Source of the DNA: Escherichia phage vB_EcoM-UFV13
Length of the DNA stretch: 64,000 nt
Sequence record: NC_031103.1
Direction: 5' to 3' (one strand)
Shown here: positions 61,709 to 63,695 of the stretch, one piece after another
How the letters are laid out: each line of letters begins with the position of its first letter
Numbering within the stretch: the first letter of the stretch is position 1
Program-made: the position numbers and the translations under genes
Notes under the pieces: generated by a model
Told to the model about the DNA's origin: nothing
Databases searched by the model: none
What the model saw: the letters and a program-made list of their open reading frames with translations, nothing else

Positions 61709-62284
61709 TTAGGAATTACGGGCTGCATTAGCAACGGCGTAAGCGTACTGAACATTAGCGTCTTTAAACGTACCTTTAGAGGTATCTATTTCTGCCTTAA
61801 AGCCGCCTTTAGTCATAACATCGGCAAATTCTTTACGGAAAGCCATTGCATCAAGACTTCTCCATGATGATTTGTGCTTGGCGAATTCAAGACCAGCGTA
61901 GTTGACAGCCTTAGCTAATTTATTATCAATAACCCATTTACCAGCTTTAGGCACAAACACCGGGCCTTTCTGTTTAGAGAATAGTTTTAAATTCCAGCGA
62001 CGAAGGTCACCGTCAGCTTTAACAAAAGCTGCGTCCAAATTACTAGCAACAACATCTTGAATATGGCCAAATTTAAGCCCATCAACTTCAATATTTAGAT
62101 CGGTACGCCAGCGAAGTCCTTCCCAAGCGAAAGCTTTAAAGTCAGAAGCTTTTGTAGCTAAGTATCGTTCAATAGGGGCTGTTTTAGGGTCAAAGCCGTT
62201 TCCTCGGTAAGTCCACTCATCTTTATTAATGCCTTTGGCCTTTTCCACAGAAGCTTCAGCGATAAATTCTTTATACGTTTTCAT
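61709..62284 (-). CDS. internal protein with capsid targeting sequence (IPIII-like)
   Basis: 191 aa; N-terminal MKTYKEFIAE. Confidence 0.7.
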   Translation of the reverse strand: MKTYKEFIAEASVEKAKGINKDEWTYRGNGFDPKTAPIERYLATKASDFKAFAWEGLRWRTDLNIEVDGLKFGHIQDVVASNLDAAFVKADGDLRRWNLKLFSKQKGPVFVPKAGKWVIDNKLAKAVNYAGLEFAKHKSSWRSLDAMAFRKEFADVMTKGGFKAEIDTSKGTFKDANVQYAYAVANAARNS

Positions 62285-62298
62285 GTGTTTCCTTTATT

Positions 62299-62613
62299 TT
62301 ATTCTTTAGGGAAGTTTTTAGAATATGCATCATAAAGCTTATTTCCAATACGGCGGAAAACTCTAGCCGCAAAACGATTTTCAGGGTTTTTAATCATGAT
62401 TTGCATCATGTAAGTTCCTGCATCCGAAAGAGCTTCTTCATAGTACCCATTAATTTCTTTAAGAGTCCTACGTTTACCACCAGGACCATCAACAGTAATT
62501 TTCCATTTACCTGTAGAAGTGCGGCTCGGTGGTTCAACTTGTTCAATCCAAATATAACCGCCTTCAACGCGTTGTCCGGCGGATTCTGCAATAAATTCTT
62601 TATATGTTTTCAT
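62299..62613 (-). CDS. internal protein with capsid targeting sequence (IPII-like)
   Basis: 104 aa; N-terminal MKTYKEFIAE; own early promoter. Confidence 0.7.
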   Translation of the reverse strand: MKTYKEFIAESAGQRVEGGYIWIEQVEPPSRTSTGKWKITVDGPGGKRRTLKEINGYYEEALSDAGTYMMQIMIKNPENRFAARVFRRIGNKLYDAYSKNFPKE

Positions 62614-62643
62614 TTTTGTTTCCTTGTTTGTTTTGATAGAGTA

Positions 62644-62673
62644 ATTATACCATATTAATACTTAAGCGTAAAC
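62644..62673 (-). promoter_or_regulatory. early promoter upstream of IPII-like gene
   Basis: GTTTAC-18-TATAAT. Confidence 0.55.
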
Positions 62674-62676
62674 AAT

Positions 62677-62935
62677 TTAAGCTTTACCGCCAGAAATAAT
62701 TCCGAAGTTGTTAAAATCGTATCCAATATCGTCAACATCTACTTTAGTACTTGCTACAACATAAGCAATTTCACTACGTTTTGCATAGGTGTTGATTTCT
62801 TTACCATCGCCACCTAAGAAAGTACCCATTACGTTTTAATGAGCCAAAGTCTTCCGCATCACCAATGAAAGCTTTAACTTTAAATTTAGGACCTTTGGCA
62901 TCTGCTTCAACGATAAATTCTTGATACATTTTCAT
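62677..62935 (-). pseudogene. internal-protein-like gene with apparent +1 frameshift
   Basis: MKMYQEFIVE... terminates after 44 codons; reading continues in another frame to 62677; shift near C-run about 62825-62827. Confidence 0.45.
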
Positions 62936-62941
62936 TTTTCC

Positions 62942-63355
62942 TTAGTAAATTGATTTACCATAGTATTTGTACCAAGTCGGACGTTGAGCAATTTTTTCAT
63001 CTAAGCGTGCTTGACTTATCGCAATGGACGCTTCAGACGGGACGTAATTATTACGAAATTCTACAGGAATGTCGGAAATATCCTGGACTGTCGTGTCCTT
63101 GATTTTGAAACCACGTTTCAAACATTCAGCGATTAGCTCGATTTGACGTAAACGTAAAAATTCGAGTTTGTCGTAAAAGAATGTTACGTGACCTGTGCCT
63201 AAGATAAATGTTGGAGAGATTTTAAAATCCTTTACACGTTTACCGTTTTGAACATGTTTACGGACTGCACCAAATACGCGTGGTAATTCACGATACTCAG
63301 CCATAAGATGTTGGTCGGTCAGTTCAGAAACAAGTGTTAAATTGATACGAGTCAT
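62942..63355 (-). CDS. denV: endonuclease V (pyrimidine dimer DNA glycosylase)
   Basis: ATG at 63355 gives [12 protein letters not shown]...; matches T4 endo V. Confidence 0.9.
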
Positions 63356-63382
63356 AATTTCCTCCAAGTAGTTGATGAATGT

Positions 63383-63412
63383 ATAGTATCAAAACCCTTG
63401 GAGGAAGTAAAC
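63383..63412 (-). promoter_or_regulatory. early promoter upstream of denV
   Basis: GTTTAC-18-TACTAT. Confidence 0.55.
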
Positions 63413-63413
63413 A

Positions 63414-63695
63414 CTATTTTTCTGAAGCGCCTGAAATATATTTTTCAAGACGTTGTTTCATCAGCGAGCCGTTCTTAGCGATTTCTTCTGGTTTATCGCA
63501 CATACGCAACAAGGCTTCAAGCTTAACGATATCACTGGTGCGCTCAAATTTGCGAGTATCTATCTTACTAGCAAGTTCAGAAATACGTGCTAATAGACTT
63601 TCAGCTTCAACCAAAGCTGCACCTAGCTTAGTTGCAAATGTGTCGGTAGCTTCGTTAAGAATAGATTCTGATAAAAATTCACTATATGTTTTCAT
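63414..63695 (-). CDS. internal-protein-like protein with capsid targeting sequence
   Basis: ATG at 63695 gives [10 protein letters not shown]...; ATGA overlap with e stop. Confidence 0.55.

Follow-up and report, generated by a model that had tools for sequence, protein, structure and literature searches.

An internal-protein gene hotspot with candidate exchangeable cassettes between lysozyme gene e and vs.8 in Escherichia phage vB_EcoM-UFV13

We analysed a stretch of 64 kb (64,000 nucleotides (nt); hereafter the window) from Escherichia phage vB_EcoM-UFV13 (UFV13; record NC_031103.1), which represents the left part of a T4-like (Tequatrovirus) genome reaching from rIIA (1..2178) to the lysozyme gene e and carrying nearly all of its genes on the minus strand. 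Close to the end of the window, four genes around the repair gene denV, one of them broken, begin with the capsid targeting sequence (CTS) known from the internal proteins (IPs) of phage T4. Our analysis supports a model according to which this locus is a hotspot of four cassettes sharing the CTS, the proteins of which would be packaged into the phage head, processed there and injected, most likely acting as blockers of host nucleases, and the order of which would have arisen by cassette exchange; we assign this reading a probability of roughly 0.8. Sequences, protein families, gene order, breakpoints and prevalence were analysed directly, whereas we infer expression, packaging, cleavage, injection and the anti-restriction activity of the three cargo proteins that T4 does not have.

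Capsid targeting sequences and cargo families

All four CTS-bearing open reading frames (ORFs) sit between e and vs.8, which makes them part of one of the two variable IP loci described for such phages (PMC2839356, PMC12373910). Read as transcribed, the order is e-ip93-denV-psi86-ip10-ipIII-vs.8-like, with psi86 denoting the broken gene, followed by vs.7 and then by grcA (vs.6), all on the minus strand (Table 1). A first-pass annotation of the window had reported four ORFs with MKTYKEFIAE-like starts lying on both sides of denV. This placement is confirmed in every case, and we can add that the strand is the minus strand and that the gene for the 93-amino-acid (aa) protein lies on one side of denV and the other three genes on the other.

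The CTS reads MKTYKEFIAE in the 191-aa as well as in the 104-aa protein and MKMYQEFIVE in the broken gene. A loose CTS pattern has five matches in the six frames of the 64 kb, four of these falling in this locus, compared to a chance expectation of 0.005 matches on average and of 1 at maximum (200 block shuffles). Residues 1-10 of IPIII were shown to suffice for targeting to the head, positions 4 and 7 (Tyr4, Phe7) mediating targeting and positions 8 and 10 cleavage by the prohead protease gp21, which recognises Ile/Leu-x-Glu and is blocked by Asp10 (review PMC9026906). Both targeting residues, Tyr4 and Phe7, are present in all four ORFs, and the same holds for the gp21 processing determinants, residues 8-10 being IAE, IAE, IVE and LSE and Asp10 occurring in none of them. 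The PHROG labels of the CTS proteins in the window are 'internal virion/head protein'.

Alignment with the T4 IPs, proposed in the first-pass annotation as a check, separates one protein from the others. The 191-aa protein aligns with T4 IPIII over its full length (91.7% identity, 192 columns, E=1e-132) and is, judged by this alignment, the IpIII ortholog and the sole ortholog of a T4 IP in the locus; the other window proteins match T4 IPs in the CTS region only. For the 104-aa protein, similarity to any T4 IP is confined to the first ~11-18 residues. It shares a 90% cluster with Ip10 of phage Pol (CAA84455) and aligns with Shigella phage SP18 Ip10 at 71% identity (100% coverage), and we assign it by homology to the Ip10 family. 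UFV13 is the only phage with recorded proteins identical to the 104-aa and 191-aa sequences. Ip10 of phage Pol was reportedly deposited with the Repoila 1994 study, the names of both the Ip10 and the Ip5 family going back to that year.

The 93-aa protein is 100% identical in phages IME340 and W143. It is a diverged homologue of T2 Ip5 (P0068; 51% identity, E=6e-8), and 74 of the 83 residues of its mature part align with the T6-type Ip5 cluster at 47% identity. Ip5 is its closest named relative, and at ~50% identity we classify the 93-aa protein from its sequence as a related family member, not as an ortholog. Ip5 of T2 and T6 maps to the other IP locus (the ipI locus), between 57B and trna.4, unlike the 93-aa gene, which is located between e and denV.

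No IPII ortholog was found among the window proteins: their matches to IPII are limited to residues 1-11 to 1-19, and none of them matches phrog_7857, the family of T4 IPII. The published description of UFV13 also reports ipII as missing (PMC5931544). A Pfam search of the CTS proteins gave no match and a PADLOC search returned nothing; in a PDB sequence search the IpIII ortholog had no match, the 93-aa and 104-aa proteins having chance-level matches only. Deep homology searches returned exclusively relatives from T4-like phages (word-index search, 5 and 3 clusters; exhaustive HMMER search, mature 93-aa protein, 3 representatives). As far as these comparisons reach, neither a fold nor a family can be detected for the cargo proteins outside T4-like phages.

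Cassette exchange around denV and the broken 86-aa gene

The first-pass annotation had placed ipII and ipIII of T4 together between denV and e. The T4 record bears this out, giving the order e-ipIII-ipII-denV, and both order and number of the IP genes differ in the window. The differing order would be the result of cassette exchange by homologous recombination through the CTS-coding repeats and through the early-promoter/stem-loop elements between the genes. The four gene starts constitute a family of 44-nt direct repeats, and conservation among all ip genes of the window and of T4 extends over the first ~30 nt (ATGAAAACATATAAAGAATTTAT...) but not over the flanks. Breakpoints relative to T4, FL12 (PP400786) and UFV05 (OP572230) fall either at ORF ends or at approximately nt 30 of the CTS-coding sequence. 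Homology to FL12 and UFV05 ends ~30 nt after the start of the following gene's CTS-coding sequence (window positions 62584 and 62253), and the DNA block shared with T4 at ipIII comprises the ORF and 12 nt upstream of its ATG. These breakpoint positions are the trace expected from cassette exchange by homologous recombination via the CTS-coding repeat.

We extended the comparison to 36 T4-like denV loci from IMG/VR, clustering all CTS-bearing ORFs after removal of the CTS. This resulted in 16 families, 13 of which have members in the two slots flanking denV; the remaining three consist of the T4 IPI reference and of two singleton ORFs located >3 kb upstream of denV. Five of the loci have IpIII on the e side of denV and seven have it on the vs.8 side. 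Arbiol et al. 2010 (PMC2839356) describe two hypervariable IP loci with >30 variants, citing Repoila 1994 and Comeau 2007, and report Repoila et al. as having proposed such intergenic elements as drivers of plasticity.

denV itself (window 62942-63391) shows a DNA identity to T4 of 79%, compared to 90-96% for the flanking vs.6-vs.8 block, ipIII and e. This divergence against conserved flanks suggests denV behaving as an exchangeable cassette with distinct alleles. The gene varies in relatives as well: in FL12 a stretch of ~300 nt of denV is gone, corresponding to window 63050-63346, and UFV05 shows the order e-Ip10-157-aa ORF-vs.8, being without denV, the 93-aa gene and the 86-aa gene (annotated order and DNA blocks).

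The stem-loop preceding denV encloses a T4-early-type promoter (GTTTAC-N17-TGATACTAT), and the Shine-Dalgarno sequence of denV falls within the 3' arm of the stem-loop. The RNA fold has a free energy of -19.8 kcal/mol (z=-2.3) in the window; the T4 denV stem-loop (locus L002, 2857-2916) follows the same design with compensatory changes in the arms and reaches -20.3 kcal/mol (z=-3.8). Transcripts starting at the promoter within the stem-loop would be without the 5' arm, and read-through transcripts would have the denV ribosome site sequestered. The promoter-like site upstream of the 104-aa gene (TTTACG-17 nt-TGnTATAAT) was the top site of the promoter scan, with 10/12 matches and an extended -10 element. 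An exact match to the late promoter TATAAATA was found nowhere in the locus, two such promoters being present immediately upstream of e in T4, and because of this lack of an exact match we dropped the idea of each ip gene having a late promoter of its own. Late expression of the ip genes is probably due to transcripts reading through from e, in agreement with the 93-aa gene being coupled to the lysozyme stop, as the first-pass annotation had seen: read from the minus-strand sequence, the stop codon of e and the start of the 93-aa gene (63695) overlap as ATGA.

The first-pass annotation had described the broken gene as a frameshifted copy, of which the frameshift holds and the copy does not. 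The N-terminal ORF (62935..62801) encodes 44 aa and then runs into a premature stop; the remainder is in another frame and forms a 50-aa C-terminal ORF without CTS (62829..62677). Compared to the otherwise near-identical intact allele of FL12, the lesion is a deletion of TT in a T5 run, leaving T3 at 62821..62819 on the minus strand. IME340, W143, FL12 and most other phages have an intact 86-aa gene, which is 261 nt long in IME340-type relatives. Sequence comparison identifies the broken gene as a pseudogene of a separate 86-aa family (phrog_2667/35655), having the CTS alone in common with its neighbours. We also considered it as an IPII homolog, an idea arising from the 101-position profile of phrog_2667, and rejected this, T4 IPII belonging to phrog_7857 and matching phrog_2667 via the CTS only. 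The 50-aa fragment is identical to P0091, annotated as 'internal head protein' of phage vB_EcoM-UFV13.

If the frameshift were a sequencing or assembly error, the phage would have four intact IP genes. The position of the lesion in a homopolymer would agree with such an error, and so would the length of the matching span, which in all of the best 30 of 178 matching phage records is 293 nt and thereby two bases longer than the 291 nt of the window, and the absence of the exact frameshifted 24-mer from IMG/VR. We nevertheless think an error rather unlikely. Two bases were lost, not one, and UFV13 was assembled from Illumina reads (PMC5931544), which rarely err in this way, arguing for a real lesion. 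Furthermore, independent frameshifts, truncations or internal deletions, some of them in-frame, affect the same gene in several other assemblies (P0087-P0089, P0092-P0094), making natural decay of the gene plausible. Breakage across these assemblies suggests recurrent loss, or possibly homopolymer sequencing errors.

Delivery and candidate targets of the internal proteins

The proposed model, which follows T4 work throughout, comprises five steps. The IPs would be synthesised late by read-through from late promoters upstream of e and would dock via Tyr4 and Phe7 of the CTS to the prohead scaffolding core, where gp21 would cut after Glu10 within Ile/Leu8-x-Glu10. The mature IPs, with computed masses of 20.2 kDa for the IpIII ortholog, 10.8 kDa for the Ip10-family protein and 9.2 kDa for the 93-aa protein, would remain in the head and be injected together with the DNA, to most likely block host nucleases attacking the glucosyl-hydroxymethylcytosine DNA. 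Each of the T4 proteins Ip1, Ip2 and Ip3 inhibits a different GmrSD type IV restriction enzyme, in the case of Ip3 the two-gene GmrSD of ECOR17 (Silas 2025, PMC12373910). Because the IpIII ortholog is 92% identical to T4 IPIII, it probably inhibits the same two-gene GmrSD. Silas et al. proposed GmrSD variants as targets of all genes in the two Ip loci (PMC12373910), and Rao and Black 2010 described IPs as diverse defence proteins having the CTS alone in common (PMC3012670). Injected IPs offer a delivery route for pre-made anti-defence effectors, with each new cargo family being a potential host-nuclease inhibitor. The suggestion of the first-pass annotation that novel cargos are anti-defence candidates fits this literature; the idea as such is not novel (PMC2839356, PMC3012670, PMC12373910), and ip4-10 were already screened.

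Several observations weigh against the model. In that screen, ip4-10 showed no reproducible inhibition of the eight active GmrSD groups restricting T-even phages, leaving a GmrSD target for the Ip10 and Ip5-like proteins hypothetical, and a match of the 'ip5' and 'ip10' constructs used to the window alleles could not be confirmed (PMC12373910). The mature 93-aa protein (83 aa; isoelectric point (pI) 6.3, neutral) and the mature 86-aa protein (pI 4.9) are not basic, unlike classical IPs. The AlphaFold2 model of the 93-aa protein is all-helical with four helices at moderate confidence (mean predicted local distance difference test (pLDDT) 72.7, predicted template modelling score 0.35), and a Foldseek search with it against the PDB yielded nothing below E=7, i.e. 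no fold match; the AlphaFold model of the Ip10-family protein is unusable (mean pLDDT 45). In the UFV13 paper, matrix-assisted laser desorption/ionization analysis named four gel bands only, none of these being an IP (PMC5931544).

Charge is one property by which these proteins could be read differently, the extra CTS proteins being mainly structural or physical components of the head, such as DNA counter-ions or scaffold helpers, rather than anti-defence effectors. The mature IpIII ortholog (181 aa; pI 9.6, net +9) and the mature Ip10-family protein (94 aa; pI 9.6, net +5) are basic, head assembly in T4 IPIII mutants proceeds roughly half as fast as normal and the burst is ~40% (review PMC9026906), and ip4-10 remained without a target in the 2025 screen. 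We regard a mainly structural role as highly doubtful, since in mature form the 93-aa and 86-aa proteins are neutral or acidic and all three T4 IPs have specific GmrSD targets. In addition, the families show no sequence relationship to one another, and their gain, loss and breakage vary freely from one close relative to the next, which is unexpected for a structural requirement.

The null result for ip4-10 can also be explained by the orphan IPs (Ip5-like, Ip10 and 86-aa family) being injected to inhibit defences that are not GmrSD-type type IV restriction enzymes, and no similarity of sequence or fold links these cargos to Ip1, Ip2 and Ip3. We judge this explanation to be improbable: GmrSD enzymes are very diverse and Silas 2025 covered 15 groups only, all three characterised IPs act on GmrSD enzymes, and positive evidence of another target is lacking, PADLOC and Pfam giving no hints. 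We consider it unlikely that any of the three cargos foreign to T4 is injected to inhibit a defence other than a GmrSD-type restriction enzyme. If this were true, the CTS delivery route would extend to a new class of targets, and the recurrent breakage of the 86-aa gene would reflect hosts sensing that protein.

Neighbouring genes and comparison with known phages

Table 1. Features of the e to vs.8 locus in the window, in the direction of transcription.
Feature	Coordinates	Strand	Basis
Lysozyme gene e, 3' part, cut by the window end	63692..64000	-	ORF end ...TGTWKAYI*; 90% DNA identity to T4 e
93-aa internal protein, assigned as Ip5-like	63414..63695	-	phrog_3499 'internal head protein', E=1e-46
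Stem-loop with T4-early-type promoter, between 93-aa gene and denV	63350..63415	-	Inverted repeat I3 and RNA fold
denV, pyrimidine-dimer glycosylase (endonuclease V), not an internal protein	62942..63355	-	Pfam PF03013 (Pyr_excise) E=3e-14; phrog_1183 E=2e-62
Predicted pseudogene of 86-aa CTS-bearing internal protein	62677..62935	-	phrog_2667, phrog_35655; alignments with IME340, W143, FL12
Early-type promoter-like site 5' of 104-aa gene	62644..62672	-	Consensus match only
104-aa internal protein, assigned to Ip10 family	62299..62613	-	phrog_3966 E=2e-33; Pol Ip10 cluster
Assigned IpIII ortholog, 191 aa	61709..62284	-	phrog_5341 E=2e-116; 91.7% identity to T4 IPIII
vs.8-like gene, conserved right-hand flank of the variable locus	61003..61590	-	phrog_1488 E=4e-79

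The vs.6-vs.8 block has 96% DNA identity with T4, extending to window position 61680. Compared to T4 vs.8 (219 aa), the N-terminal part of the vs.8-like protein is removed by an in-frame TAG (AAATTTAGAG in the window and AAACTTATAG in T4; window 61553-61654, minus strand), the long ORF restarting at the ATG at 61590. As this TAG is present in IME340 as well, it represents a lineage variant and not an error.

The fifth match to the CTS pattern lies 44 kb from the locus at 17818..17654 on the minus strand, just upstream of the primase gene 61. It corresponds to gene 61.1, which is present in T4 also and encodes a 54-aa product starting with the canonical CTS MKTYKEFIKE; the first 24 nt match the 104-aa ip gene at 23/24 positions. 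Residues 2-38 of gp61.1 align with residues 57-93 of T4 gp23 (E=2e-8) and are followed by a Lys/Glu-rich tail, with I8-K9-E10 falling on L63-T64-E65 of gp23, the end of its 65-residue propeptide. By this alignment gp61.1 appears to mimic, with a CTS as its tag, the cleavage region and the N-arm of gp23, and its gene belongs to neither of the two IP loci. According to Arbiol et al., IP genes occur in these two loci only (PMC2839356), for which reason gene 61.1 may deserve a look; a literature search on gene 61.1 found nothing.

The region analysed here is the e-denV-vs.8 internal-protein hotspot, a known polymorphic locus in a published genome, and its arrangement is ordinary among relatives and already known. 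At least 80% of the 2.5-kb locus is covered by 63 phage records, the best matches being 93-96% identical, and the cargos are represented by 188 records for the 104-aa/Ip10-like protein, 495 for the 93-aa/Ip5 family and 178 for the DNA of the 86-aa gene. Hypervariability of the locus, CTS-based shuffling and the effector idea have been in the literature since 1994, with an experimental extension in 2025; the window adds one set of alleles and one pseudogene but no new principle. Its practical value is that of a pointer to orphan cargos (Ip5-like, Ip10 and the 86-aa family) still without targets.

Among the closest known loci are those of IME340, p000v, PaulHMueller (Bas45) and ChristianSchoenbein, which match the whole 2.5 kb at 93-95% identity in the same gene order, the 104-aa protein of IME340 being 98% identical to that of the window; unlike the window, all four phages carry an intact 86-aa gene. 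W143 reaches 95.6% identity at 99% query coverage and differs by an extra ipII after ipIII and by an intact 86-aa gene. The locus had been described in the first-pass annotation as rearranged and expanded, which is correct with respect to T4 (three intact genes and one pseudogene compared to two genes), while the novelty implied by this wording does not hold, the same order being found in IME340, p000v and PaulHMueller.

The T4 locus shares with the window the neighbours e, denV, vs.8, vs.7 and grcA, the strand, the 10-residue CTS (Y4, F7, I/L8, E10) and the denV promoter/stem-loop module. It differs in having the order e-ipIII-ipII-denV-vs.8 with two ip genes only, whereas the window has no IPII and carries three cargo families foreign to T4. 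The CTS is common to Ip10 of Pol and SP18, to Ip5 of T2 and T6 and to the 104-aa and 93-aa proteins alike. With the anti-GmrSD proteins Ip1, Ip2 and Ip3 (Bair 2007, Silas 2025), the internal proteins of the window share both the delivery tag and the type of locus.

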